Positions 3,578-53,216 of a DNA stretch of 64,000 nt are shown here, piece by piece (within the stretch, counting starts at the first letter, position 1; each line of letters opens with the position of its first letter). The notes beneath the pieces were generated by a model. The model saw only the letters and a program-made list of their open reading frames with translations, did no database searches and was not told the origin of the DNA. This stretch comes from an uncultured Pseudomonadales bacterium. Lineage in GTDB: Bacteria; Patescibacteriota; Microgenomatia; UBA1400. Made by a program: the position numbers and the translations under genes. The stretch is taken from NCBI GenBank assembly GCA_964589815.1, contig CAZPUR010000003.1, positions 42,554-106,553 of the forward strand, read 5' to 3'.

Positions 3578-3604
3578 TTAGTTAAACTTCTTTTTTTTCT
3601 CCTC

Positions 3605-3631
3605 GTCATTCCGGATTTGGTCCGGAATGAC
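3605..3631. repeat. GTCATTCC-type hairpin repeat (GTCATTCCGGA-TTTGG-TCCGGAATGAC)
   Basis: Perfect 11-bp stem read directly. Related GTCATYC hairpins at 26893, 38718, 39795 and 45578. Confidence 0.8.
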
Positions 3632-5147: not shown

Positions 5148-5984
5148 ATGCTAGTTGATACTCATTGCCATCTTAATTTTCAGATTTTTAAGGGTAGAGT
5201 TAGAGAAGTTATTGAGGGGGCGAAAAAAGCGGGTGTGGAGAAAATGATTGTGCCAGGAACAGACTTGGAGACTAGTAAAAAAGCAGTAGAACTGGCTGAA
5301 AAATATCAAGAGGTTTATGCGGCCGTAGGCATTCATCCCCACCATGCTAGAATTAAGAATTTAGAATTAAGAATTAAGAATAAGTTAAAAGCATTAGCTA
5401 GAAATAAGTCTGTGGTGGCCATTGGAGAATGTGGTCTGGATTATTATCAATATCAGAAAACAAAATACAAAGATTATAAAATTAATGATCAGTTCAAACA
5501 AAAGCAAAAAGAAGTCTTCAAAATACAGATAGATTTAGCTAGGGAGCTAAAACTTCCTTTAATTATTCATAATCGTAAAGCTTCTGAGGACATTTTAGAA
5601 ATAATTGGAAATTGGAAACCTGCCCGTCCGGCAGGCGGGTTGGAAATTGGAAATTTTAATGGCGTTTTCCATTGTTTTGAAGGTGACGAGAAATTATTAA
5701 CCTGGGGACTAAAACACAATTTTTATTTTGGTATTACCGGGAATGTAACTTATAATGAAAAGATCAAGCAATCAATTAGAAAAATTCCTTTAAAGAATCT
5801 ATTAACCGAAACTGATACTCCTTATTTAGTTCCGGAACCTTTACATTCTCAAAAAATCTTTCCAAATGAACCTAAAAATGTTAAAATACTGGCCAAACGA
5901 ATCGCTGAGATAAAAGGCGATTCTTTTTTAAGAATAGAAGAACAAACAACCAAGAATGCAGTTCAATTATTTAAATTAGAATAA
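5148..5984 (+). CDS. tatD: TatD-family metal-dependent hydrolase/DNase
   Basis: MLVDTHCHLNF start, GECGLDYY and LIIHNR motifs. Confidence 0.9.
   Translation: MLVDTHCHLNFQIFKGRVREVIEGAKKAGVEKMIVPGTDLETSKKAVELAEKYQEVYAAVGIHPHHARIKNLELRIKNKLKALARNKSVVAIGECGLDYYQYQKTKYKDYKINDQFKQKQKEVFKIQIDLARELKLPLIIHNRKASEDILEIIGNWKPARPAGGLEIGNFNGVFHCFEGDEKLLTWGLKHNFYFGITGNVTYNEKIKQSIRKIPLKNLLTETDTPYLVPEPLHSQKIFPNEPKNVKILAKRIAEIKGDSFLRIEEQTTKNAVQLFKLE
5605..5653 (+). repeat. 21-nt GC palindrome (CCTGCCCGTCCGGCAGGCGGG) flanked by 14-nt perfect direct repeats TTGGAAATTGGAAA, inside tatD
   Basis: Read directly: left repeat 5605-5618, core 5619-5639, right repeat 5640-5653. The ORF stays open (KPARPAGGLEIGN). Confidence 0.85.
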
Positions 5985-5987
5985 ATT

Positions 5988-7475
5988 ATGATTAGAGCAT
6001 TTATTGAAAAGCACGAAAAAAAGGTTCATCGTCTTTTAGAAATTTTACCCGGAGTTTTCTCTTGGTCTTTAATTTTATTTCCTTTTTGGGGTTCTTTTGT
6101 GATCCCAGTAGTAGTCGCTTATTATATTATTGCCTTTGATGTTTATTGGTTTTACCGTTCGGCTTCGGTAATGTTTTTAGCCTTAGGATCATATTTTAAA
6201 ATTAGGGCTGCTCAAAGATATAATTGGATGAGCGATGTTAGAGATTTTGGTGACTGGGGTCGTGTTCATCATATCGTGGTGATTCCTACTTATCAAGAAC
6301 CCTTATACATTCTACGTCGGACTTTAACGGCTTTGAAAAATCAAACTTTTCCTACTAAAAAGATTTCTATTGTTTTGGGCTTTGAAAAAAGAGAAGGTCA
6401 GCCAGCAAGGAAAAAATCAAGAATTTTATCCCAAGAGTATAAAAATTTTTTTGCTAACCTTTTAACTACTTTTCATCCTGATATGCCAGGAGAAGTGAAA
6501 GGTAAATCTTCAAATATTGCCTATGCCGCCAAAATTGCCCAAAAAGAAATTGTTAATAGACAAAAGAAAAAGCTTGACTATATTTTAGTCACCTCAGCTG
6601 ATGCTGATGCTCGGTTCCACCAATCATATTTTGCCTGCTTGAGTTATAAGTTTTTAGATAATCCCCAACGTTATCATCTCATTTTTCAACCAGCAATTAT
6701 GTATTACAACAATATCTGGCGAGCACCTGCTCCGGTAAGGGTTTTTTCTAGTGCTTCAAGCCTGGTACAAACAGGTCTTTTAAATAGGAAAGATAGACTG
6801 ATTAATTTTTCTACTTACTCAACCAGTCTTAGGTTGGTTGAGGCGGTTGGTTATTGGGACGTCGACGTTATTCCTGAAGATTACCGCTTCTTTTTTAAAG
6901 CCTATTTTGCTTTAAAAGGCAAAGTAGAAGTAGAGCCAATATTCTTACCTGTTTATGCTGACGCGGTCCTTTCCACTTCTTTCTTAAAGACAATGAAGAA
7001 TCAATATGAACAAGTTAAACGTTGGGCCTGGGGAGTTTCTGATGACGCTTATATTATTAAAAAATGGTTAACTGTTCCCGGTTTGCCTTTCTGGGATAAA
7101 ACCTTAAGGGTTTTAAAAGTACTTGAGGATCATTTTTTGTGGCCGGTCAACTGGTTTGCCATCACCTTGGGAGCAACTTTGCCCCCCTTGTTAAACGAAG
7201 ATTTTGCCAGAACTATTATAGGTAAAAGATTACCTCAGACTGCTTCTTTAATCCTCAGTTTTTCTTTAATCGCTTTAATTATTGCTATTTATATTGATTT
7301 AAAACAACGACCCAAGATAGAAACATTGCCTTTCTGGCGTCGAATAGTGACACCCTTTGAATTTATTCTTTTACCAATAGTAGGGTTCTTTTTTACTGCT
7401 TTACCAGGATTAGATGCTCACACGAGGTTAATGTTGGGTAAGTATATTGAATATCGGGTGACAGAAAAAGTTTAG
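5988..7475 (+). CDS. membrane-bound family-2 glycosyltransferase, processive synthase type
   Basis: Multi-TM protein with GT2 core (VVIPTYQE, TSADADA) and Q-x-x-R-W-like motif QVKRWAWG. Confidence 0.75.
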   Translation: MIRAFIEKHEKKVHRLLEILPGVFSWSLILFPFWGSFVIPVVVAYYIIAFDVYWFYRSASVMFLALGSYFKIRAAQRYNWMSDVRDFGDWGRVHHIVVIPTYQEPLYILRRTLTALKNQTFPTKKISIVLGFEKREGQPARKKSRILSQEYKNFFANLLTTFHPDMPGEVKGKSSNIAYAAKIAQKEIVNRQKKKLDYILVTSADADARFHQSYFACLSYKFLDNPQRYHLIFQPAIMYYNNIWRAPAPVRVFSSASSLVQTGLLNRKDRLINFSTYSTSLRLVEAVGYWDVDVIPEDYRFFFKAYFALKGKVEVEPIFLPVYADAVLSTSFLKTMKNQYEQVKRWAWGVSDDAYIIKKWLTVPGLPFWDKTLRVLKVLEDHFLWPVNWFAITLGATLPPLLNEDFARTIIGKRLPQTASLILSFSLIALIIAIYIDLKQRPKIETLPFWRRIVTPFEFILLPIVGFFFTALPGLDAHTRLMLGKYIEYRVTEKV

Positions 7476-10631: not shown

Positions 10632-11729
10632 ATGGCATTTTTTCCTTTATTGAAAATTTTTCTTTTTACCGCCTTAGTTTCTTTTTTTACCACCCCTTTA
10701 GTTATTCGGCTTTATAGTCGTTTTCATTGGTTAGACGACCCTAAAATCACCAAGAGAAGAAAAAATACTCATACTTATCCTGTCCCTCGCGGAGGAGGAA
10801 TTTCTCTTTTTTTAGCTGTTTTTTTAGCCTCTTTGATTTTTCTAAATCTAGACAAGCATTTATTGGGTATTCTGGCGGGAGCTTTAGTGATTCTCGCCAT
10901 GGGAGTTTTAGATGATATTTTTGACCTTAATCCTTATTTAAGATTAATCGGTGGTTTTTTAGCCGCCTTATGTGTTGTGGGTGCAGGTATTGGTATTCCT
11001 TTTATTACCAACCCTTTTAACGGTATTGTCAAACTGAATCAACCGCAGATACCTATTTTTATATTAGGAAAATGGCGGACGATTTGGGTTTTAGCTGATT
11101 TATTTGCTCTTTTTTGGATTAACTGGTGTATGAATTTTGTTAATTGGTCTAAGGGGTTAGATGGCCAACTGCCGGGCATTGTCGTGGTGGCGGCTTTAAC
11201 TATTAGTATTTTAAGTTTGCGTTTTAGTGCTGATATTACTCAATGGCCGGTAATTATCCTGGCTTTAATCACGGCTGGAGCCTATTTTGGTTTTTTGCCT
11301 TGGAATTTTTATCCCCAAAAAATTATGCCTGGTTATGGTGGCGGCGCCTTAGCAGGATATTTATTAGCAGTTTTAACTATTCTTTCGACCACCAAGGTGG
11401 GCACGGCCATGATGGTTTTAGGCGTGCCTTTAATTGATGCCGTTTATGCCTTGCTCCGTCGGCTTAAAAAAGGTAAGTCGCCGGTCTGGGGAGACAGAGG
11501 TCATCTGCATCATAAATTACTTGATTTAGGCTGGGGTAAAAGAAGAGTGGCTGTTTTTTATTGGCTAATTACTGCTTTTCTGGGACTACTGGCTTTAAAA
11601 TTGAATGCTCAGGCCAAATTTTATACAATAATTCTACTGGCTGTTTGTTTTGCTGGAGTAGTTTTATGGCTCAATTACCTTTCCTTATTTTTAAATCCGC
11701 CCGGCCGACGCAGTGGATTAAAAACTTAA
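10632..11729 (+). CDS. MraY/WecA-family polyprenyl-phosphate sugar-1-phosphate transferase (GT4)
   Basis: GVLDDIFDLNP and NFVNWSKGLDGQ motifs in a polytopic protein. Confidence 0.8.
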   Translation: MAFFPLLKIFLFTALVSFFTTPLVIRLYSRFHWLDDPKITKRRKNTHTYPVPRGGGISLFLAVFLASLIFLNLDKHLLGILAGALVILAMGVLDDIFDLNPYLRLIGGFLAALCVVGAGIGIPFITNPFNGIVKLNQPQIPIFILGKWRTIWVLADLFALFWINWCMNFVNWSKGLDGQLPGIVVVAALTISILSLRFSADITQWPVIILALITAGAYFGFLPWNFYPQKIMPGYGGGALAGYLLAVLTILSTTKVGTAMMVLGVPLIDAVYALLRRLKKGKSPVWGDRGHLHHKLLDLGWGKRRVAVFYWLITAFLGLLALKLNAQAKFYTIILLAVCFAGVVLWLNYLSLFLNPPGRRSGLKT

Positions 11730-13733: not shown

Positions 13734-13985
13734 ATGTTTTATGTTTATGTTTTGAAAAGTCGCACTAATGGAGATATTTACGTTGGTTACTCAAGAGATT
13801 TAAGGACAAGGATTGATGCACACAACAAAGGTAAAGTAAAATCAACTAAAGCTTATAAACCCTGGATACTGGTTTATTATGAAGCTTATAAAGGTAAAAA
13901 AGACGCTACCAAACGAGAGAAAGAGTTAAAATTACACGCGGCGAAGAAATTGTTAATCGAACATCTAAAAGAAAGTCTTAAGTAA
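13734..13985 (+). CDS. small GIY-YIG nuclease-family protein (URI domain only)
   Basis: MFYVYVLKSRTNGDIYVGYSRDLRTRIDAHN has GIY..YIG-type motifs plus a conserved R and KREKELK. The caller's GTG at 13671 lies inside hairpins. Confidence 0.8.
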   Translation: MFYVYVLKSRTNGDIYVGYSRDLRTRIDAHNKGKVKSTKAYKPWILVYYEAYKGKKDATKREKELKLHAAKKLLIEHLKESLK

Positions 13986-26859: not shown

Positions 26860-26892
26860 AGAGAGTTTATAGTGTCGTTACGGAGCGAATTT

Positions 26893-26950
26893 GTCATTCT
26901 GGAGCGAAGCGATAGAATCCCTTGGGATCCTTTGCTGTGCTCAGGATGAT
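26893..26950 (+). repeat. head-to-head pair of GTCATYCTG-type repeats forming one long hairpin
   Basis: GTCATTCTGGAGCGAAGCGATAGAATCCC / GGGATCCTTTGCTGTGCTCAGGATGAT. Arm differences are mostly T-versus-C (G.U in the sense RNA). The 3' arm covers the ATG at 26946. Confidence 0.75.
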
Positions 26951-26960
26951 TAATCATTCC

Positions 26961-29730: not shown

Positions 29731-29834
29731 TTGTTACATTGTTACATTGTTACATTGTTGATAGTTTTTTGTAATACAAATCGGAAGGCTACTGTTAGCA
29801 ATGAAGCAATGAAGCAATGAAGCAATGAAGCAAT
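29731..29834 (+). repeat. foldback spacer: (TTGTTACA)x3 + TTGTTGAT on the 5' arm, (GCAATGAA)x4 on the 3' arm
   Basis: Units pair in register (per 8 nt: 6 Watson-Crick, 1 G.U, 1 A.A). Helix base at 29731/29833. Confidence 0.8.
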
Positions 29835-30222: not shown

Positions 30223-30354
30223 GGAATTACAAATCACAAGCACCAAATATCAAATAAATTCAAAGCACCAAATTAAAAATTCTAAACGTTTTGAATTTAA
30301 AAATTTTAATTTGAATATTGTTTGGAGTTTGGAGTTTGGAGTTTGGAGTTTTCC
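30223..30354 (+). repeat. foldback spacer, ACCAAAT/ATTTGGT family copy C1, with (TTTGGAG)x4
   Basis: GGAATT..(A)GTTTTCC closing pairs, AAATTCAAA/TTTGAATTT core. Shares AATTACAAATCACAA (15 nt) with 33910-33924. Confidence 0.7.
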
Positions 30355-32940: not shown

Positions 32941-33091
32941 GTGTTAATTAAGTAGTTGATTAACTCGTTAACGCTCGTGTTAATTAGGTAGTTAATTAAC
33001 TAGTTTAATATAGTCCTATCAATCAACATGATCCGCCAGCTGGCGGAGAATAAATTAACTATCAATAAACAACTTAATCAACTAAAAAACA
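32941..33091 (+). repeat. foldback spacer, TTAAGTAGTTGATTA family, full copy
   Basis: 33015-33089 is identical over 75 nt to 41177-41251. TAGTTGATTA (32952-61) pairs with TAATCAACTA (33075-84). Carries palindrome TCCGCCAGCTGGCGGA (33032-47). Confidence 0.85.
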
Positions 33092-33646
33092 ATGAGTCGT
33101 TTACAACAAAAATACCAAAAAGAAATTGTTCCGGAGTTAAAAAAGGAATTTAAGATTAAAAATGATCTGGCTGTGCCTAAGGTAGCAAAAGTGGTACTTA
33201 ATGTGGGGATTGGCGAAATCGCTCATGATAAACAGGCTTTGGAAAAAGCCAAAAATACTTTAGCGGCCATTACCGGTCAGAAACCTTTAATTCGTCCGGC
33301 CAAAAAAGCAATTGCTGATTTTAAGATTAGAAAAGGCAATTCAGTCGGTCTTAAAGTAACTTTAAGAAGGAAAAGAATGTATGATTTTTTAGATAAACTA
33401 TTCTCTTTGGTTTTACCCTTGGTGCGTGATTTTCAGGGAGCTAAGCAGAATGCCTTTGATCAAGATGCCAATTATACCTTAGGCTTAAAAGAGCAGGTTA
33501 TTTTTCCTGAGGTGGACTATGATAAAATTGACAAGGTTCGAGGGATGGAGATTAGTATTGTTATCTCGACTAAAGACAAGAAAAAAGCAGCTAGATTGTT
33601 AGAATTAATGGGAATGCCGTTTACTAAGGAGGAATTAGGAAATTAG
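33092..33646 (+). CDS. rplE: 50S ribosomal protein L5 (uL5)
   Basis: SRLQQKYQKEIVPELKKEF start and the NVGIGE region. Confidence 0.95.
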   Translation: MSRLQQKYQKEIVPELKKEFKIKNDLAVPKVAKVVLNVGIGEIAHDKQALEKAKNTLAAITGQKPLIRPAKKAIADFKIRKGNSVGLKVTLRRKRMYDFLDKLFSLVLPLVRDFQGAKQNAFDQDANYTLGLKEQVIFPEVDYDKIDKVRGMEISIVISTKDKKKAARLLELMGMPFTKEELGN

Positions 33647-33653
33647 GATAAAA

Positions 33654-33705
33654 GTGATTAGTCAAAAAAAGACTAATCACTAATCACTAATCACTAATCA
33701 CTAAA
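33654..33705 (+). repeat. 10-bp perfect hairpin (GTGATTAGTC-A7-GACTAATCAC) followed by (TAATCAC)x4
   Basis: The heptamer array 33674-33701 places TAA in all three frames just before the S14 start position. Confidence 0.8.
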
Positions 33706-35114: not shown

Positions 35115-35528
35115 ATGATTAAACGTTACAAGCATAAAACGCTTAAAAGAAAAATCAAGATCAGGGCCAAACTTTTGAAAATAGGTCGAAGACCCAGGTT
35201 ATCTGTTTTTCGTTCTAATAAATATATTTATGCCCAGATTATTGATGACCAAAAAGGAAAAACACTGGCGGCGGCTAGTGAAAAAGACATAAAAGAAAAC
35301 TCCAATCCGCCAGCTGGCGGACCAAAACTCCCCCGACCTCGCCTCGGCTCGGCCGAGGGCGGGCAAAACTCCAAGATTAACAGAGCGTTTCAGGTGGGTC
35401 AAATCTTGGCCAAGAAAGCCTTAAAAATAAAGATTAAAAAAGTATATTTTGACCGCGGCGGCTATAAATATCATGGCCTGATTAAAGCCTTAGCTGAGGG
35501 TGCCAGAAAAGGAGGACTGGAGTTCTAA
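35115..35528 (+). CDS. rplR: 50S ribosomal protein L18 (uL18) with a 23-codon GC-rich insertion
   Basis: RLSVFRSNKYIYAQIIDD and GGYKYHG motifs. Insertion NPPAGGPKLPRPRLGSAEGGQNS. Confidence 0.93.
   Translation: MIKRYKHKTLKRKIKIRAKLLKIGRRPRLSVFRSNKYIYAQIIDDQKGKTLAAASEKDIKENSNPPAGGPKLPRPRLGSAEGGQNSKINRAFQVGQILAKKALKIKIKKVYFDRGGYKYHGLIKALAEGARKGGLEF
35295..35371 (+). repeat. two adjacent GC palindromes, each bounded by the 8-nt direct repeat AAAACTCC (three copies)
   Basis: AAAACTCC at 35295, 35323 and 35364. Cores TCCGCCAGCTGGCGGA (35305-20) and CCCGACCTCGCCTCGGCTCGGCCGAGGGCGGG. Periods 28 + 41 = 69 nt. Confidence 0.85.
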
Positions 35529-36700: not shown

Positions 36701-37986
36701 ATCGCATTCTTCAGCCCATTATCAACGCCTTTAAGGTTTCCGAACTGAGAAAGAAAATTGTTTTTACCTTGCTAATGTTCATTGTTTTCAGGTTGACAGC
36801 CCATATTCCCGTTCCTGGAGTTGACCTGGAAGCTTTAAAAATGCTTTTTTCCCGTAATCAATTTTTAGGCCTTTTAGATATTTTCTCTGGCGGTACTTTA
36901 ACCAATTTTTCCATTATTGCCATCGGCCTTTCTCCCTATATTAACGCTTCCATTATTTTACAGCTTTTAACTATGGTTTTCCCCAAATTAGAAGAATTAA
37001 GTAAAGAGGGTGAATTAGGAAGAGAAAGAATTAATCAATACACTCGTTTTTTAACCATTCCTTTAGCTATTTTTCAGTCCGTGGGAATGATGGCGATTTT
37101 AAAAAAGCAGCAGATTTTTACCAGCTTAAATTTTCTCAATCTGGGTTTAATTGTGGTAACCATGACCAGCGGTTGTTTATTTTTAATGTGGTTAGGAGAA
37201 CTGATTACCCGTTATGGAATTGGTAACGGTATTTCTTTATTGATTTTTGGTGGGATTGTGGGTCGTCTACCGGTTTCTTTAGCGCAAACAGTTTCTTTAG
37301 TGGAAACAGTTAGTTTTTTTAATCTCTTGGTTTTTGTGGTTATGGCGATTGGGGTTATCGCCGCCATTTGTTTTGTCAATGAAGCCCAAAGGCAAATTAC
37401 AGTTTCTTATGCCCGCAGGGTTCAGGGCCGAAAGATGTATGGCGGTTCCAGTACTCATCTGCCTTTAAGAGTAAATCAAGCAGGAGTTATTCCTATTATT
37501 TTTGCTGTTTCTTTGGTCTTGATTCCCAATATGCTGGCCACTTGGTTGCAGACCTTGCCTAATCAAAAACTGGCCAATTTGGCCGTTTTTATGGCTCGGC
37601 TTTTTGATCCTCAAAGCCTTTTTTATAATCTTTTTTACTTTCTACTGGTAATTGCTTTTACTTATTTTTATACCGCCGTCACTTTTAATCCTGAAAAAAT
37701 CGCCGAAGAAATTAAAAAACATGGCGGTTTTATTCCAGGCATTAGACCCGGCAAACCTACGGCCGAGTACCTGAATTATATTTTAACCCGGATCACTTTG
37801 GCTGGCGCAGTTTTTTTAGGTCTGGTGGCGATTTTACCTTCTCTAGCCCGAGTTTTAACCGGCGTCACCACCATGATGATTGGCGGCACTGGTATTTTAA
37901 TCGTGGTTTCAGTCATTTTAGAAACCAGCAAATCTTTGGAAGCTCAACTTTTAATGAGAAATTATGATGGATTTTTAAAGGAGTAA
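36697..37986 (+). CDS. secY: preprotein translocase subunit SecY
   Basis: 429-aa polytopic protein with SecY motifs ([23 protein letters not shown]). Confidence 0.96.
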
Positions 37987-38136
37987 ATTTTCAATTTTCA
38001 AATCCCAATTTTCATTGAATTTTCAAATCCCAATTTTCAAACTGCATTTAAAAAGATCAAAAAAGTTTGAGAATTAAAAAATTGTAAATTAATTATTCAT
38101 TGTAAATTGAAAATTGTTAAATTGAAAATTAAAATT
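37986..38136 (+). repeat. foldback spacer between secY and adk with (ATTTTCAAATCCCAATTTTCA)x2
   Basis: 37986-38001 pairs with 38122-38136 (15 bp, one bulged C at 37992) by manual pairing. The helix base joins the last nt of the secY TAA to nt -1 of the adk ATG. Confidence 0.75.
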
Positions 38137-38727
38137 ATGTACATAATTTTCTACGGTCCTGAAGGTTCAGGTAAAACCACCCAGGCCAAATTGCTGGCCG
38201 AAAAATTAAACCTGCCTTATTTAGGTTCAGGCGATTTAGTCCGCCATTATGCTGCCCGGGATAAAGGCATTATGGGTGATGTTTGCCGCGAAGCCTTATC
38301 CATCGGCCATTATGTGCCTGATTCAGAAATGTTTGTTTTATGGAAACAGCGTTTAAAAGAGTCGGATGTCCAAAGTGGTTGGATTTTAGATGGTTTCCCG
38401 CGCAACGACACTCAAGCAGATTTTTTAGATGATAAATTAGATAAATATGGAAAAAAAGTAGATGCGGTTTTTTATATCAAAGTTAAGGAGAGTACTTCGA
38501 TTAAACGTCTGACCAAACGCGGCCGCCGCAATCCGGATGGCAGTTTACATGATGATCCTAAAAAAGTCCGGGAGAGACTGCGGATTTATAAAAAGGGCGA
38601 AAAGGGTGTTTTAGATTTATATAAGAAAAGAGGCGTCTTGTATGCTATTGATGGCGAGCCCAGCATTGAGCAGATTCACAAAGAGGTTTTACAGAGGGTA
38701 GAAAAACTGACTCTGGCGTCATCCTGA
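38137..38727 (+). CDS. adk: adenylate kinase
   Basis: MYIIFYGPEGSGKTTQAKLLAEKL P-loop start. The caller's TTG at 38107 lies in the repeat arm. Confidence 0.92.
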   Translation: MYIIFYGPEGSGKTTQAKLLAEKLNLPYLGSGDLVRHYAARDKGIMGDVCREALSIGHYVPDSEMFVLWKQRLKESDVQSGWILDGFPRNDTQADFLDDKLDKYGKKVDAVFYIKVKESTSIKRLTKRGRRNPDGSLHDDPKKVRERLRIYKKGEKGVLDLYKKRGVLYAIDGEPSIEQIHKEVLQRVEKLTLASS

Positions 38728-38743
38728 GCGCAGCGTAGGATCT
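38718..38743. repeat. GTCATCCTGAGCGCAGCGTAGGATCT repeat overlapping the adk stop codon
   Basis: The adk TGA (38725-27) is the TGA inside the GTCATCCTGA motif. Confidence 0.75.
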
Positions 38744-38745
38744 AT

Positions 38746-39444
38746 ATGAAAATTCTTAAAAAAAACTTACAAATCGCTATTGATGGATTAGTTGGCGCCG
38801 GCAAAAGTGTCGGCGCTCATCGTTTGGCCCAACGTTTAGGGATTTTGTATGTTTATACTGGCGCCATGTATCGGGCGACTGCTCTTTTAGGCATTCAAAA
38901 CAACACTGATCTTAAAGACGAAGCCAAACTTATAGCTTTGTTAAAAAAAAGCACCATTAAACTAATGCCTGCTTCCAAAAAAAGCCGGGTTTGCGATGTT
39001 TTTATTGACGCTAAGGACGTGACCGATGAACTCTTTTCTTCTCAAGTGAATTGGGGATCTTCAGTCGTAGGTCTTTTGCCCAGGGTAAGAAAATATTTGG
39101 TTAAACTTCAGCAGGAAATTGCTAAAGGTCAGGCAGTGGTCATGGAGGGCAGAGATATTACCACCGTAGTTTTGCCCCAAGCTGACCTCAAAATTTTTCT
39201 GACAGCTGAGCTTAAAATTAGAGCCAAAAGAAGACTTAAAGACTTGCGCCAAAGAGGAGAAAAAAAGACCTTAGAACAAGTGATTGAGGAAACAGTTAAA
39301 AGAGATTACCAAGATTCGCACCGTCAAGCTGATCCCCTAAGAATTGTCAAAGGCGCTTGGGTTTTAGACACTAGCAACCTTACCATTGATCAAGAAGTAG
39401 ATCTGATGATCAAACGCCTAAAAGCCAAGAAACTAGTTAGTTAG
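38746..39444 (+). CDS. cmk: cytidylate kinase
   Basis: IAIDGLVGAGKSVGAHRLAQRLG and GRDITTVV motifs. Confidence 0.9.
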   Translation: MKILKKNLQIAIDGLVGAGKSVGAHRLAQRLGILYVYTGAMYRATALLGIQNNTDLKDEAKLIALLKKSTIKLMPASKKSRVCDVFIDAKDVTDELFSSQVNWGSSVVGLLPRVRKYLVKLQQEIAKGQAVVMEGRDITTVVLPQADLKIFLTAELKIRAKRRLKDLRQRGEKKTLEQVIEETVKRDYQDSHRQADPLRIVKGAWVLDTSNLTIDQEVDLMIKRLKAKKLVS

Positions 39445-39445
39445 C

Positions 39446-40246
39446 ATGAAAATTCCTATAAAAACTCCTCAGCAAATTCAAATTATGAAGCAAGGTGGCT
39501 ATAAGCTGGGTCGGATTTTAGGTCAGCTAGTTAAAATGGCCCAGCCTGGAGTTAACCTTTTAGATATTGAAAAAAAAGCGATGGTTTTAATTAAAAAAAC
39601 TGGAGGAGAAGCTGGATTTGCCCGGGTACCTAATTATCATTGGGCCACTTGCCTTAATATTAATGAGGAAATTGTTCATGGTGTTCCTAAAGATTATTTA
39701 CTTAAAAGCGGTGATGTTTTAAATATAGACATTGGTTTATATTACCGAGGCTTTAATACAGATATGAGCAGTACCATTTATATAAAAAATCCTCGTCATC
39801 CTGAACTCGTTTCAAGATCTATAAAAAAATTCCTTTCTACTGGTAAAAAAGCTCTCCAAGAAGCTATCAAACAAGCTCAACCTGGCAATCGGGTCGGTCA
39901 TATTTCCCAAAAAATTCAAGAGATTATAGAAGGAGCTGGTTATTCTTGCGCCCGTACTCTTACTGGCCATGGAATTGGCAAACAATTGCATCAGCCGCCT
40001 TCGATTCCCTGTTTTCTTAGGGATTCAATAGAAGAAACGCCCATTTTAAAAGAAAAAATGGCTCTGGCAATTGAGGTGATTTATTGTCTGGGAAAACCAG
40101 AGTTAGTGATTGATCCTCAAGATAGATGGACAATTAGAACCAAAGATGGTCGGTTAACGGCAGTTTTTGAAAAAACTATCGCTGTAACTGAAAAAGGGCC
40201 AGTAATTATCACTCCGTTTGAGGGAAAAGAGTCCCATAATATTTAA
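39446..40246 (+). CDS. map: type I methionine aminopeptidase with a 13-codon repeat-derived insertion
   Basis: VHGVP, DIGLYYRGFNTDMS, GHGIG and AIEV metal-site motifs. Confidence 0.94.
   Translation: MKIPIKTPQQIQIMKQGGYKLGRILGQLVKMAQPGVNLLDIEKKAMVLIKKTGGEAGFARVPNYHWATCLNINEEIVHGVPKDYLLKSGDVLNIDIGLYYRGFNTDMSSTIYIKNPRHPELVSRSIKKFLSTGKKALQEAIKQAQPGNRVGHISQKIQEIIEGAGYSCARTLTGHGIGKQLHQPPSIPCFLRDSIEETPILKEKMALAIEVIYCLGKPELVIDPQDRWTIRTKDGRLTAVFEKTIAVTEKGPVIITPFEGKESHNI
39781..39830 (+). repeat. GTCATCCTGAACTCGTTTCAAGATC element flanked by the direct repeat TATAAAAAA, in-frame in map
   Basis: Direct repeats at 39781-89 and 39820-28, period 39 nt. Encodes NPRHPELVSRSIK. Confidence 0.85.
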
Positions 40247-40283
40247 CAGAAGGTAGAGTTGGGATATAATATATTTTATTATT

Positions 40284-40454
40284 ATGGAAGAAAAGATAAA
40301 AATAAGGAGTTCCCTTACTCTTCATGCTCCAGAAGGTAACGTAAAAACAGTTCCTATAAGAGAAGGGGGTTTAAAATGGTTGGCCCAAGCAGCTGATAAG
40401 AGGATGCAAAGATTGCGTGATGAGGGGGCAACTCCTGAAAGCAATCCTTTTTAG
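40284..40454 (+). CDS. hypothetical 56-aa protein (possibly the 5' part of a frameshifted gene)
   Basis: Own translation MEEKIKIRSSLTLHAPEGNVKTVPIREGGLKWLAQAADKRMQRLRDEGATPESNPF. TATAAT at 40265-70 upstream. Below the ORF-track size cutoff. Confidence 0.4.
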   Translation: MEEKIKIRSSLTLHAPEGNVKTVPIREGGLKWLAQAADKRMQRLRDEGATPESNPF

Positions 40455-40498
40455 AAGATTTAAATAGCCTTATACATGTAAGTGGGCAGCCGTTTCCT

Positions 40499-40753
40499 TT
40501 GGAACCACTTGAACCCTCAGGGGAAGAGATATTTGTAGAGAAAGCAGTAAATATTGTTGGTGAAGTAATGGCAGTAATAGAATCAGTTGATGATTCAACT
40601 CTTCCTAAATGGCAAAGAGCGCTTTTAAAAACACCAGAAGGAGAAGAGCAACTTCGAGACTTAAAAATTCAGGCTTTTGACCAGATGGCTAGTTTAATTA
40701 GAGAGGGTCTTGGGCTTAGTGAAGGAGAGAGTATTTTGGAGCTGTTGGATTAA
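40499..40753 (+). CDS. hypothetical acidic 84-aa protein (frame is open upstream to 40443)
   Basis: ORF-track entry with a TTG start and no SD. Its frame is the -1 frame of ORF 40284..40454 and opens 12 nt before that ORF's stop. Confidence 0.4.
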   Translation: MEPLEPSGEEIFVEKAVNIVGEVMAVIESVDDSTLPKWQRALLKTPEGEEQLRDLKIQAFDQMASLIREGLGLSEGESILELLD

Positions 40754-40860
40754 GACTAATTATATTCAAGCTATCAGGCTAGACAATTAGAGCCACTTCT
40801 GATAAAATAACCCTGTTATTATAAACCATCGCTATTATGGTGATGGTTGTTTAGTTTTGC

Positions 40861-40889
40861 TTGTTAACAGGCTAATTTTTTGCTAAAAT
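40861..40889 (+). promoter_or_regulatory. putative infA promoter (TTGTTA, 17 nt, extended -10 TGcTAAAAT)
   Basis: The -10 ends 11 nt before the ATG at 40901. Confidence 0.5.
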
Positions 40890-40900
40890 AGTTTCAATTT

Positions 40901-41119
40901 ATGTCACAACCCAAAGGAGAAGTAGTTGAAGGCGAAGTTTTAGAAGCTTTGCCTAATGCTATGTTTCGGGTTAAAACGACCGAAGGACAATTGTTGCTTT
41001 GTACTTTATCAGGCAAAATGAGAATTAATCGGATTCGGGTTTTGCCTGGAGATCAAGTCAAGCTGGAAACTACTCCTTATGATGAAACTAGGGGTAGAAT
41101 TGTTTATAGAACCAAGTAA
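40901..41119 (+). CDS. infA: translation initiation factor IF-1
   Basis: [33 protein letters not shown]...[12 protein letters not shown] (S1-like IF-1 pattern). Confidence 0.96.
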
Positions 41120-41253
41120 ATATAGTTATTAAGTGGTTGATTAGCTCGCAACGCTCGCGTTAATTAGGTAGTTAATCCTATCAATCAACATGATCCGCCA
41201 GCTGGCGGAGAATAAATTAACTATCAATAAACAACTTAATCAACTAAAAAATC
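41120..41253 (+). repeat. foldback spacer, TTAAGTAGTTGATTA family, second full copy
   Basis: 41177-41251 is identical to 33015-33089. Lacks ~18 nt present in the other copy. Ends at the rpmJ ATG. Confidence 0.85.
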
Positions 41254-41367
41254 ATGAAAGTCAAAGCCTCAGTTAAAAAACGATGTAAAAAATGTAAGGT
41301 AGTAAAGCGCCGCGGCCGCATTTATATTGTTTGTAGTAATAAGCGCCATAAGCAAAGACAAGGATAA
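41254..41367 (+). CDS. rpmJ: 50S ribosomal protein L36 (bL36)
   Basis: Absent from the ORF track (37 aa). Own translation [37 protein letters not shown]. Confidence 0.95.
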
Positions 41368-45565: not shown

Positions 45566-45577
45566 TTTTCCTCCTCT

Positions 45578-45602
45578 GTCATTCCGCACCTGATGCGGAA
45601 TC
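45578..45602. repeat. GTCATTCCGCA-CCTGA-TGCGGAATC hairpin repeat
   Basis: 8-bp stem; GTCATTCC family. Confidence 0.75.
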
Positions 45603-45648
45603 TATACAAATAAAATCCTCTAATAATAAAATAACCACTACCATTATT

Positions 45649-45719: not shown

Positions 45720-46001
45720 ATGGCATTTGTTTATTTATCAAAAAGCTTAAAAGATAATAAGAAATATATTGGTTCAACAAATAATTTACAAAGACGTATA
45801 AAAGAACATCAAAATGGTTTAGTAAGGTCAACAAAATATAGACGGCCGTTAATTTTACTAGGTTATCAGATTTGCAACGATGTTAAAGAAGCAGCTTTTT
45901 TGGAAAGAAAATATAAAAGAAGCCATAATGTTCTTGGGAGAGCAATACAAAGAGGGAGTTTTAGATTAGTTCATTCGGGGCGTGGTGCAGTGGTAGCATA
46001 G
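45720..46001 (+). CDS. small GIY-YIG nuclease-family protein; 3' end of the ORF runs into tRNA-Pro
   Basis: MAFVYLSKSLKDNKKYIGSTNNLQRRIKEHQNG... GIY-YIG-like core. The last ~9 codons overlap the tRNA, so the true stop and length are uncertain. Confidence 0.7.
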   Translation: MAFVYLSKSLKDNKKYIGSTNNLQRRIKEHQNGLVRSTKYRRPLILLGYQICNDVKEAAFLERKYKRSHNVLGRAIQRGSFRLVHSGRGAVVA

Positions 46002-50538: not shown

Positions 50539-51685
50539 AGGGTGAAATCCTCCTCAAATCTTTAATCACTTTGGGTAAAACCTTCAAGACATAGTCTATT
50601 TCTTCTTCTTTAGTCCATCTGCCCAAACTAAACCTGATTGAACCCTGAATTTCTTCTGGTCTAAGACCCATAGCCAAAAGGACATGGGATGGCTCTAAAC
50701 TTTGTGAAGAGCAAGCAGAACCAGTCGAAACCGCGATTCCCAGTTGATTTAATTTTAGCATGATGGCTTCGCCCTCAATATAAGAGAATCTAAGATTGGC
50801 ATTATTAGCCAATCTTTTTTCAGGATGACCATTTAAATATGAATCCGGAATTTTATCTAAAATTCCTTTAATTAACTTATTTCTTAGTTTAGTTAATCGG
50901 ATTGTTTCTTGGGACATTTCTTTTTGGCAAATTTCCACTGCCTTAGCCAAGCCAGCAATAACAGGAACATTAACAGTTGAAGACCGAAAACCGGATTCAT
51001 GGCCGCCGCCGTGAAGCAGGGGCTCAATTTTTACTCCTTTTCTGAGGTATAAAAGAGCCACCCCTTTTGGTCCGTAGATTTTATGAGAAGAGGCGGTTAG
51101 AAAATCAATTTTCATTTTTTTAACATTAATCGGGATTTTACCAAAGGATTGAGAAGCATCAGTATGGAAAGGGACATTTTTCTGTTTGCAGATGCGAGCT
51201 AATTCTTCAATTGGCTGAATGGTGCCGACTTCATTATTAGCCTGCATCATGGAAACTAAAATAGTTTTTTTACTGACGGCTTTTTTTAGATTTTGAGGGC
51301 TAATCAATCCATATTTATCCACCGCAAGTTTGATGATCTCAAAACCTTGCTTTTCCAGCCATTGGCTGCTTTTAAGAACACAATCATGCTCAATTGAAGA
51401 GACGATGATTTGGTTGCCTTTATGTTTATTAGCCCAAGCCACTCCTTTTAAAACCGTGTTATTACTTTCTGTAGCTGAAGAAGTAAAAATAATTTCTTCG
51501 GGATTGGCCTTTAAAGCTTGAGCCACGATTTGCCTGCTTTTTTCCACCACCGCCTGAGCCTCTTGACCAAAAGAGTGCAGAGAGGAAGAATTGGCAAAAG
51601 TAGTTTTTAAATGTTGGTTAACTACTTTTAAAACCCGAGGGTCGATTGGGGTAGAAGCAGCATAGTCTAAATATACTTTTTTCAT
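50531..51685 (-). CDS. nifS: cysteine desulfurase (NifS/IscS type)
   Basis: YLDYAASTP, SSHKIYGPKG (PLP Lys) and STGSACSS active-site loop. Confidence 0.92.
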   Translation of the reverse strand: MKKVYLDYAASTPIDPRVLKVVNQHLKTTFANSSSLHSFGQEAQAVVEKSRQIVAQALKANPEEIIFTSSATESNNTVLKGVAWANKHKGNQIIVSSIEHDCVLKSSQWLEKQGFEIIKLAVDKYGLISPQNLKKAVSKKTILVSMMQANNEVGTIQPIEELARICKQKNVPFHTDASQSFGKIPINVKKMKIDFLTASSHKIYGPKGVALLYLRKGVKIEPLLHGGGHESGFRSSTVNVPVIAGLAKAVEICQKEMSQETIRLTKLRNKLIKGILDKIPDSYLNGHPEKRLANNANLRFSYIEGEAIMLKLNQLGIAVSTGSACSSQSLEPSHVLLAMGLRPEEIQGSIRFSLGRWTKEEEIDYVLKVLPKVIKDLRRISPYV

Positions 51686-52081: not shown

Positions 52082-52137
52082 AGTGAATCCTGCGTGGTTC
52101 ACTAAGAAATTCTACCTTTTATGTAGAAGTTTGTCAA
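52082..52137 (-). promoter_or_regulatory. promoter (TTGACA, 17 nt, TAGAAT) plus inverted repeat AGTGAA-N10-TTCACT in the leader of the rrf2-nifS-nifU operon
   Basis: -35 at 52132-37, -10 at 52109-14, inverted repeat 52082-87 / 52098-103 (plus-strand coordinates). Confidence 0.55.
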
Positions 52138-53216
52138 GAAGCTGAAATTTTTCCTCCCCCCAAACATAGCTTACCATCATAAAAAACGGCAAATTGGCCT
52201 GGAGTAATAGCTCTTTGAGGTTGATTAAAAACAAGCTTGAGTTGTTTATTTTGGGGAGGGTAAAGAACAGCTGGTTGTTCTTGGTGACCATACCTGATTT
52301 TTGCCCTTACTTTAATTGTTTTTATGGGTGTTTTTCCAGAGATAAAATTAAAAGGCGAAAGCTCTATTTCTTTTTGAAGCAAATCTTTTTCATTTTGAGT
52401 CACAATAACTTGGTTGTTTCGAGAATCCAGTTGTTTAACAAAATATGGTCCTCCGGAAAGACCAATTCTTTTTCTTTGACCAATAGTATAAAAATGTAAA
52501 CCCTGATGTTTACCCAAAACATTACCTTGAGTATTAATGATTTTTCCTGGTTTTTGACCCAGCCTTGTTTTCAAAAACTCAGTAATTTTTTTGCTCGGAC
52601 AATAACAAAAATCCTGACTTGACTTTACTATAATTGAACTGCGCCTGCCTGCCGGCAAGGCAGGGCCGCTATTAAATAATAGTAATTTTCTAGCCATTTT
52701 TATTACTTGTTTTTTAGTATATTCTCCTAAAGGGAAAACAATATGTTTTAATTGTTCCCGGGTTAAAAAAGAAAGATAATAGGTTTGATCCTTGGCTCTA
52801 TCCTTGGCTTTCAAGAGTTGATAGCTTTTAGCTTTTAGCTTTAAGCTTTCAGCTATTCTCGCGTAGTGTCCTGTTGCCACATAATTTATTTTTCTTTTTT
52901 TAGCCAATTCCAAAAGCTTTTTAAATTTAAGTTGGGGATTACAGATAATACAAGGATTGGGTGTCCGGCCATTTTTATATTCATTAATAAAATAATCCAC
53001 TACCTTTTGTTTAAATTCTTTTTTAACATCCAAAATATAATGGGGAATTTTTAACATTTGGCAGACTTTTTTTGCACTTGCGAAAGATCTTTTGTTTTGC
53101 CAGGCAGGGATATCTAAAGAAACGCCAATCGGCTCCCAACCGTGTTTTTTCAAAAAAAAAGCGGCCATGGAAGAATCAACTCCGCCAGATAGTCCCACAA
53201 TAATTTTTTCCTTCAT
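52134..53216 (-). CDS. mnmA: tRNA 2-thiouridine(34) synthase MnmA, with a GC-palindrome insertion
   Basis: VGLSGGVDSS PP-loop and NPCIICN motifs. Insertion GPALPAGRRSS at 52641-52669. Confidence 0.93.
   Translation of the reverse strand: MKEKIIVGLSGGVDSSMAAFFLKKHGWEPIGVSLDIPAWQNKRSFASAKKVCQMLKIPHYILDVKKEFKQKVVDYFINEYKNGRTPNPCIICNPQLKFKKLLELAKKRKINYVATGHYARIAESLKLKAKSYQLLKAKDRAKDQTYYLSFLTREQLKHIVFPLGEYTKKQVIKMARKLLLFNSGPALPAGRRSSIIVKSSQDFCYCPSKKITEFLKTRLGQKPGKIINTQGNVLGKHQGLHFYTIGQRKRIGLSGGPYFVKQLDSRNNQVIVTQNEKDLLQKEIELSPFNFISGKTPIKTIKVRAKIRYGHQEQPAVLYPPQNKQLKLVFNQPQRAITPGQFAVFYDGKLCLGGGKISAS

Follow-up and report, generated by a model that had tools for sequence, protein, structure and literature searches.

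How does a short palindromic repeat come to be read as part of an essential enzyme, and does it have a role of its own there? The question is raised by a 39-nucleotide (nt) block within map, the gene for the type I methionine aminopeptidase (MetAP), in a stretch of 64,000 nt from an uncultured bacterium of the Microgenomatia (contig CAZPUR010000003.1 of assembly GCA_964589815.1, positions 42,554 to 106,553; hereafter, the window), with a G+C content of 37%. According to the original prediction, a hairpin repeat with the GTCATYC signature was cleanly inserted into this gene, with a duplication of 9 nt of the target. The comparisons described here point to a different history of the same block, which is probably an old, tolerated and translated copy of a repetitive extragenic palindrome (REP) of the CGTC-tagged type, residing in a permissive loop of MetAP and devoid of a present function as a nucleic acid.

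The block and the protein that carries it

The block is delimited by two copies of the 9-mer TATAAAAAA that enclose the spacer TCCTCGTCATCCTGAACTCGTTTCAAGATC (39790-39819) and are read in the same frame of the map open reading frame (ORF), as (Y/S)-I-K. The period is 39 nt, that is, 13 codons, with NPRHPELVSRSIK as the translated unit; the coordinates and the frame are exactly those predicted. The REP within the block is translated as residues R117-I126, namely RHPELVSRS and the first bases of the I126 codon. Together with the first base of the REP tag, the TCCT that precedes it forms the pentamer TCCTC, which is found also at the REP copies at 3605 and 45578 and may be a portion of the element.

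The repeat sits in frame in an essential enzyme, with the identity of MetAP secure and the ORF intact. The protein contains the PF00557 domain, its best solved relatives are the enzymes of T. maritima (1o0x, 1.7e-43) and E. coli (1mat, 1.6e-34), and the nearest named homologs, with 54-61% identity, come from Candidatus Beckwithbacteria and other Microgenomates/Patescibacteria. The AlphaFold2 (AF2) model has a mean predicted local distance difference test (pLDDT) score of 95.8 and template modeling (TM) scores of 0.90-0.92 to 1o0x and 3tb5, as befits the pita-bread fold of type I MetAPs. No variation is seen in the alignment at the metal ligands D95, D106, H175, E210 and E242, and the ORF is uninterrupted, so that the reading frame and the catalytic residues are kept, and the segment that holds the block is permissive.

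In the AF2 model, a strand (residues 103-112) is followed by a loop with one short turn (113-123) and a helix (124-142), with pLDDT values of 89-92 across the block. The segment from 'GFNTDMSSTIY' to 'FL' consists of 16 residues in the window protein and of 7-37 residues in 108 homologs, with the mode at 10-11; compared with the solved MetAPs, the window protein is longer by just 5-6 residues at this loop. As far as the model and the length variation among the homologs can tell, the REP site is a linker between the strand and the helix that is predicted to be solvent-exposed and insertion-tolerant, the point that the original prediction proposed to check by alignment to MetAP structures.

The CGTC-tagged family in the window

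In the survey by Di Nocera, De Gregorio & Rocco (2013; PMC3733652), CGTC-tagged REPs are described as having an unpaired CGTC tag, often replaced by TGTC (variant CCTC), a stem of 8-9 bp that opens with an A-T and then a T-A pair, a loop of 4-5 nt and a 3-nt tail with the consensus CCA. These elements are mostly intergenic and located just 3' of ORFs, with occasional copies wholly inside genes for known proteins, and predominantly form head-to-head dimers; the same text describes no dedicated transposase and places Neisseria dRS3 as well as Rickettsia conorii RPE-4 and RPE-6 (Rickettsia palindromic elements, RPEs) in the superfamily. The map copy conforms to this description in its tag (CGTC, 39794-97), its stem (8 bp, with one mismatch) and its loop (CTCGT, 5 nt), and the other copies in the window are mostly intergenic, one of them supplying a stop codon. 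The assignment of the map block to the CGTC superfamily is supported by the tag, the stem, the loop, the copy number and the genomic placement.

A strict scan for GTC followed by an 8-bp stem that starts with AT (at most one mismatch) and encloses a loop of 4-6 nt yields four matches in the window, compared with 0.18 expected and a maximum of two among 300 random sequences that served as the control. These matches are the copy at 3605 (on both strands), the copy at 45578 and the map copy. A looser pattern, GTCATYC-N9-15-GRATS, is matched five times against 0.20 expected, a count reached in none of 100 shuffles; because one copy is palindromic and is counted on both strands, the five matches correspond to four loci. 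The heptamer GTCATYC alone is not significantly enriched (11 observed, 7.2 expected). All four canonical copies (Table 1) are intergenic and lie on the plus strand, and within the 64 kb the family is multicopy and mostly intergenic, near the 3' ends of upstream ORFs. The tag is CGTC at 3604, at 38717 and in map, and TGTC at 26892 and 45577. Look-alikes are present in other loci of the candidate phyla radiation (CPR): TGTC ATTCTGAA cttga TTCAGAAT ctatataaa at position 11425 of locus L084, closely resembling the map copy, and CGTC ATCCCGCA cgtga TGCGGGAT cta at position 5905 of locus L106. The prediction that the block holds a member of a dispersed GTCATYC hairpin family is thus borne out, both by its tag, stem and loop and by the copies elsewhere in the window.

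Table 1. The map block, its parts and the other REP copies in the window
Feature	Position	Strand	Details
Canonical copy, CGTC ATTCCGGA tttgg TCCGGAAT gac	3604..3631	+	Upstream of metG; -19.5 kcal/mol, z -4.9
Opposite-orientation pair	26892..26952		rpsJ-rplC spacer; TGTCATTCTGGAGCGAAGCGATAGAATC on the plus strand (26892-26919), related ATCATCCTGAGCACAGCAAAGGATCC on the minus strand (26925-26952)
Copy nearest to map, CGTCATCCTGAGCGCAGCGTAGGATCTAT	38717..38745	+	adk/cmk junction; source of the TGA stop codon of adk
map, type I methionine aminopeptidase, 266 aa	39446..40246	+	PF00557, PDB matches, AF2 model
Left TATAAAAAA	39781..39789	+	Codons (Y112) I113 K114 (N115); Tyr-Ile codons ancestral
TCCT 5' flank	39790..39793	+	TCCTC with the first base of the tag
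Degenerate CGTC-tagged REP in map	39794..39821	+	Tag CGTC 39794-97; 5' arm ATCCTGAA 39798-805; loop CTCGT 39806-10
Degenerate CGTC-tagged REP in map, 3' half	39811-18 (arm), 39819-21 (tail)		Arm TTCAAGAT with one C-A mismatch; tail CTA
Right TATAAAAAA	39820..39828	+	Codons (S125) I126 K127 (K128); first 2 nt overlap the REP tail
Canonical copy, TGTC ATTCCGCA cctga TGCGGAAT cta	45577..45605	+	-10.1 kcal/mol, z -3.1; a GIY-YIG ORF follows after 115 nt

The same loop in related genomes

The protein closest to the window MetAP shows 67% identity (69% in alignment A1), and no insert-free allele of the source species was found on record in the protein search, in which this 67% match is the nearest. 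A profile scan of genome contigs with the MetAP alignment gave, among the matches listed, mostly sequences from distant phyla (best identity, 51%) and no close relatives, and the same alignment detected 24 loci in metagenome contigs. One orthologous locus, L001, encodes the protein P0007, with 67% identity outside the loop and 71% nucleotide identity to the window map gene, and has the REP head AAAAATCCTCGTCATCCTGAAC at the same codon. Its loop reads ...TATATCAAAAATCCTCGTCATCCTGAAC CTTCTCATCATCCTGAATCCGCCAGCCGGCGGATTTCAGGATCTATAGATAAATTT..., and the arms ATCCTGAA and TTCAGGAT pair perfectly, enclosing a second palindrome, TCCGCCAGCCGGCGGA, in a hairpin of -22 to -23 kcal/mol (z ~ -4.5). The shared run of 22 nt is the longest exact identity between the two map genes but is only suggestive because, at 71% identity, chance alone should yield a run of at least 22 nt about 0.1 times. 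A REP combined with CCGCCAGCTGGCGG is found also in the adk-cmk spacer of L084.

Most of the MetAP orthologs lack the REP in this loop. Those long loops for which the DNA was retrieved consist of GC-rich palindromes or simple repeats: hairpins based on AACCCCGGGGTT in L112 and L108 (-37 kcal/mol), with the same palindrome in the rpsM-rpsK spacer of L108; CCTGCC..GGCAGG in L110 and L107; TCCGCCAGCTGGCGGA, also given as the CCGCCAGCTGGCGG palindrome, in L009; hairpins of -39.8 and -24.2 kcal/mol in L091 and L088, respectively; and heptamer or octamer arrays in L011, L083 and L106. Overall, the loop palindromes of the orthologs span -23 to -40 kcal/mol. The proteins P0007, P0016 and P0017 are 82-84% identical to one another, yet their loops are, respectively, the REP, a minimal stretch of 10 residues and a simple repeat. 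The loop turns over fast, and this one site of MetAP seems to have been colonized repeatedly by different palindrome families across lineages.

The flanking repeat

In REP-free orthologs, the Tyr-Ile codons and the Val/Ile-Lys-Lys codons (GTTAAAAAA) are separated by 6-7 codons. The locus L113, which encodes P0016, reads GTT TAT ATC / GGT ACT CAG CCG CCT CAG TCG / GTT AAA AAA TTT CTT, so that both half-sites, Tyr-Ile (TATATC) and Val-Lys-Lys, are present seven codons apart without any REP. The left half-site, TATAT-, coincides with the Tyr-Ile codons, and the right one, -TAAAAAA, with the codons at which the helix begins, a conserved stretch (consensus EIxKFL in the alignment) and the ancestral helix N-terminus that reads V/I-K-K-F-L in the REP-free orthologs. 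The first two bases of the right copy belong to the REP tail CTA, which is common to the copies at 38717 and 45577 and those of L084 and L106. The corresponding sites of L001, the loop of which holds the same REP, are TATATCAAA and TATAGATAA, alike in only 6 of the 9 positions. TATAAAAAA itself occurs 10 times in the window (7.85 expected), and direct repeats of 9-mers spaced by 12-60 nt are found at 128 loci, compared with 28 in Markov random sequence. On this evidence, the TATAAAAAA pair is best seen as the chance likeness of two sets of A-rich ancestral codons (for Tyr-Ile-Lys and for Ile-Lys-Lys), rather than as a target-site duplication (TSD).

The alternative envisaged in the original prediction is the transposition of a 30-nt element, akin to MITEs (miniature inverted-repeat transposable elements), into TATAAAAAA, with a 9-bp TSD, in which case the empty site would be a single TATAAAAAA joining the strand and the helix (...ACCATTTATATAAAAAAATTCCTT...). 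The exactness of the 9-nt repeat and its in-frame 39-nt period speak for such an event, as does the observation that a flank of at least 9 nt is found at just about 0.6% of random sites; moreover, the palindrome in the map loop of L110 is flanked by a 12-nt repeat (TAAAAGTTCAAA) with a 42-nt period, the excision of which restores the canonical loop length. However, excision of one 39-nt period from the window gene leaves only three residues (I-K-K) between the strand and 'FL', compared with the minimum of seven in the 108 homologs, so that the proposed pre-insertion sequence, ...STIYIKKFLST..., is shorter here than any homolog. The half-sites that pre-exist in L113, the imperfect sites of L001 and the assignment of the 'TA' of the right copy to the REP tail likewise argue against a TSD, and the terms 'target site' and 'duplication' do not appear in the text of PMC3733652, which describes no target duplication. 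Clean insertion with target duplication is accordingly unlikely; it retains some weight because of the rarity of such flanks at random sites and because direct repeats neatly enclose some of the other intragenic palindromes.

The ancestral-codon reading of the flanks has consequences for the size of the event. About 36 nt (AAA AAT CCT CGT ... AGA TCT) now occupy the place of about 21 nt, a net difference of about 15 nt or 5 residues, and the gain amounts to about 5-6 residues rather than 13 because the linker left by excision would fall below the 7-37-residue range of the homologs. The original prediction had been staked on the absence of a homologous 13-residue segment from repeat-free lineages: in part this is contradicted, as about 7-8 of the 13 residues have homologous counterparts there. 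The REP would then have become embedded in frame in the strand-helix linker, replacing about 6-7 ancestral loop codons with about 11-12, for a net gain of about 5 residues, and is translated within MetAP as N-P-R-H-P-E-L-V-S-R-S. It would have persisted because the loop tolerates almost any length and sequence. The present state, we infer, is that of a tolerated selfish or neutral insertion, with both the mode of insertion and the neutrality being presumed.

Decay of the map copy and the case against a REP

The map copy retains seven of the eight stem pairs, with a C-A mismatch at position 4 (AAGATC where its relatives have AGGATC), and is probably an old, partly decayed REP, the hairpin of which is no longer stable. 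Because it is unstable as a nucleic acid, it most likely has no present function.

Several observations weigh against the reading of the block as a CGTC-type REP that was acquired without target duplication. The map hairpin has a predicted folding energy of just -2.3 kcal/mol (z -0.29), a value matched by 74 of 200 shuffles, and the map copy is unrecognizable from its own fold alone. In all, the 64 kb contain just a handful of copies of the family. As compared with the features given in PMC3733652, the tail is CTA (in map, 38717, 45577, L084 and L106) instead of the consensus CCA, which is present in two copies of L021, and the head-to-head habit is missing, the one pair in the window (26892-26952) being tail-to-tail and the other copies single, albeit in a small sample. 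In a neighbor-joining tree, the window protein is the sister of the P0007/P0016/P0017 trio with a bootstrap of only 31%, so that the window and L001 may share the REP by descent, with replacement in P0016 and P0017, or through parallel gain at the same codon. Finally, several intragenic palindromes in the window and in the orthologs are flanked by A-rich direct repeats of 8-14 nt and, given also the low rate (0.6%) at which flanks of at least 9 nt arise at random sites, a duplication-generating mechanism may operate in general.

Another possibility is that no mobile element is involved, and that the loop diverged in situ, the likeness to the GTCATYC hairpins being due to chance or convergence in a fast-evolving segment under low constraint. 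The insignificant thermodynamics of the hairpin fits this possibility, as does the lack of significant enrichment of the heptamers. However, the full pattern is expected only 0.18 times per window on both strands, or about 0.002 times per 800-nt gene, L001 has the same head with perfectly paired arms, the flanks TCCTC (5') and CTATA (3') are common to other copies, and the corresponding loop of other lineages holds unrelated palindromes that belong to dispersed families. In situ divergence is, then, very unlikely.

The adk/cmk copy and its bearing on map

The gene order around the block is adk (38107-38727), cmk (38746-39444), map (39446-40246) and infA (40901-41119), and the REP copy nearest to that in map is located at the adk/cmk junction. 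This copy, 1,077 nt upstream, could have served as a local template, through template switching or ectopic conversion via microhomology between the start of cmk (CTATATGAAAATTCTT) and the start of the map helix (CTATAAAAAAATTCCTT), which would be a variant of the mechanism of the REP insertion proposed above. The stems of the map and adk/cmk copies are both of the ATCCTGA subtype, as opposed to ATTCCG in the other two copies; the map and adk/cmk copies can be aligned with 74% identity over 39 nt, the similarity reaching about 16 nt past the REP into sequence that is functional at both places (family D18), and the REP-free L113 already has AAAAAATTTCTT at the site. Against this route, the loops differ (2/9), the 5' flanks are dissimilar, and A-rich flanks match easily by chance; the L001 contig does not include the adk/cmk junction and so provides no test. 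Local templating is rather improbable.

The junction itself is occupied by a REP in three lineages (window, 38717-38745; L106, 5904-5932; L084, 5170-5262). The stems differ but compensate, being ATCCTGAG.. in the window, ATCCCGCA.. in L106 and a composite with CCGCCAGCTGGCGG in L084, and the adk stop codon is provided by the REP in both the window and L106. The conserved position at adk/cmk suggests a function, for example, as a processing site, a terminator or a means of coupling the two genes.

It could be surmised by analogy that the map block, too, is a functional RNA or DNA element of the operon, such as an attenuator, an RNase site or a place where ribosomes pause, maintained by selection. 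The retention of position with different, compensating stems at the adk/cmk junction is compatible with this idea, and the 22-nt REP head is the longest nucleotide identity with L001; yet a run of this length is not improbable enough by chance at the observed divergence, the map hairpin is thermodynamically unremarkable, most orthologs lack the REP, and no Rfam family matches the window at the gathering thresholds, the surroundings of map having yielded no meaningful match either. A selected nucleic acid function of the map block is extremely improbable, and the reading of a decayed, tolerated REP is preferred in what follows.

Relation to known palindromic elements

Beyond the tail and the arrangement of the copies, the elements of the window differ from those in the accessible part of PMC3733652 in that the copies in 64 kb are few, the map copy is mismatched and lacks a stable fold, and the host belongs to a CPR/Microgenomates-like group that is not among the phyla mentioned there. 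The kinship of the map block with the RPEs rests on the placement of RPE-4 and RPE-6 among the CGTC REPs in that source.

The bacteria best known for translated palindromes of the REP type in essential proteins are Rickettsia and a small number of proteobacteria and Verrucomicrobia. RPE-1 and its relatives, described by Ogata and colleagues in 2000, reportedly lie in frame within protein-coding genes; RPE-1 itself has a length of about 100-150 bp and is specific to Rickettsia. The similarity to these elements is one of behavior, which the intragenic REPs listed in PMC3733652 also match: in Rickettsia as in the window, a selfish palindrome is translated as extra residues of an essential housekeeping protein at a permissive surface position, and several unrelated genes per genome are hit, which in the window include also rplR, tatD and mnmA. 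Unlike the RPEs, the units found here are 16-30 nt long, belong to several unrelated families and come from another phylum.

Bacterial MITEs are likewise short, non-autonomous palindromic repeats that can sit in frame in genes, but the element considered here is 25-30 nt long compared with about 50-500 bp, has no transposase-derived terminal inverted repeats and lacks the hallmark TSD, the putative duplication being best explained by ancestral codons. GTAG-tagged REPs, which are mobilized by REP-associated tyrosine transposases (RAYTs; IS200/IS605-like Y1 enzymes), resemble the window elements as small, multicopy and mostly extragenic hairpins with an unpaired tetranucleotide tag; the tag here, however, is CGTC or TGTC. 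No literature linking REPs or palindromic elements with CPR/Patescibacteria was found in the searched library, the only collection covered, and an intragenic REP with RPE-like behavior is apparently unreported for the CPR/Microgenomates-like group. This case extends the range of translated REPs to a CPR genome and widens the host range of CGTC REPs.

Palindromes in other housekeeping genes

Three more housekeeping genes of the window contain in-frame palindromic inserts. In rplR (35115-35528, plus strand), an insert of 19 residues, NPPAGGPKLPRPRLGSAEGGQ, is absent from the orthologs in L106 and L110. The corresponding DNA (35293-35375) reads AAAACTCC / TCCGCCAGCTGGCGGA / AAAACTCC / CCTCGGCTCGGCCGAGG... 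/ AAAACTCC, with two GC-rich palindromes of different sequence, both of which are enclosed by copies of the 8-mer AAAACTCC, located at 35296, 35324 and 35365. In tatD/ycfH (5148-5984, plus strand), the palindrome CCTGCCCGTCCGGCAGGCGGG is enclosed by a pair of exact 14-nt copies of TTGGAAATTGGAAA (5605-5653) and is translated as GNWKPARPAGGLEIGN, which corresponds to an 8-residue gap in the alignment with PDB 2gzx; the repeat period of 35 nt is out of frame, and the heptamer substructure also yields an in-frame period of 42 nt. In mnmA (52134-53216, minus strand), the palindrome CCTGCCTTGCCGGCAGGCAGG (52644-52664) falls within a 12-residue insert, FNSGPALPAGRR, relative to the solved MnmA structures. 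The palindromes of rplR, tatD and mnmA also occur in intergenic regions of the window (33032, 41194, 670 and 58505).

Flanking repeats of at least 8 nt accompany 4 of the 18 GC-rich hairpins in the window, compared with 1.5% of the controls. Such repeats were considered as a general rule for GC-rich hairpins and rejected: the four cases in the window come from two independent loci, and 56 hairpins of other CPR loci show no enrichment, although several intragenic copies do conform to the rule.

Tentatively, and with somewhat greater odds of being wrong than right, a broader scenario can be proposed in which unrelated families of tiny GC-rich palindromes (CGTC REPs, CCGCCAGCTGGCGG, CCTGCC..GGCAGG and AACCCCGGGGTT) would repeatedly colonize permissive loops of housekeeping proteins in frame, many of them bracketed by A-rich direct repeats of 8-14 nt or by heptamer arrays. 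This would amount to an RPE-like phenomenon in a Microgenomates-like CPR lineage, apparently a novelty for the group in the literature searched, affecting MetAP, as a recurrent hot spot, as well as L18, TatD and MnmA. If true, it would point to an uncharacterized insertion mechanism, either duplication-generating or microsatellite-targeting, that is unlike RAYT-type REP mobilization. What is worth pursuing in this picture is the recurrent colonization of one MetAP loop, along with the inserts in the three further housekeeping genes. The loop constitutes a natural map of a highly insertion-tolerant MetAP site, and its presence and absence states at one orthologous position make a tractable system for studying the spread of palindromes that lack a transposase. 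There is also a warning for annotation, in that odd peptides of CPR proteins, such as RHPE, PPAGG and LPAGRQ, are repeat-encoded.

Additional observations

Another MetAP site is associated with a palindrome in L010, the more distant map gene of which (6001-6777) contains CCTGCCTGCCGGCAGG at 6546-6561, about 546 nt into the gene; this is a second, different site, close to the variable 'FLRDSIEE' region. Downstream of map, the spacer to infA is 654 nt long in the window (40247-40900), compared with only 26-216 nt in six related loci, and contains two small ORFs (40284-40454 and 40499-40753), neither of which has a match in the Pfam search.

As a candidate third copy, GTCATCCTGA at 50820 (minus strand) was examined and, having no partner arm, is treated as a chance occurrence; it lies within the 'NGHPEKRL' stretch of an ORF that we take to encode a cysteine-desulfurase-like protein. 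The REP at 45577-45605 is followed, 115 nt downstream, by an ORF (45720-46001) encoding a GIY-YIG nuclease domain (PF01541, 2.5e-14), and a GIY-YIG-like motif is also encoded near 13740 (repeat family D16).

An intergenic repeat of 85 nt is present in two copies that are 96% identical (33011-33095 and 41173-41257), with further repeated sequence at 32970-32996 and 41150-41176. Within it, the palindrome TCCGCCAGCTGGCGGA has CTATCAAT as its flank; one copy of the repeat is located just 3' of infA, and the repeat may act as a common leader, promoter or terminator module. Short tandem arrays are frequent in the window, mostly with periods of 7-8 nt and in one case 25 nt (AGCAATGA, GTTTGGA, ACTAATC, AATTTTCAAATCCC and others), for example, at 29797-29830, 30320-30345, 33672-33700, 37986-38040 and 5348-5375, and similar heptamer arrays flank the palindromes in the MetAP loops of L083, L107 and L011.

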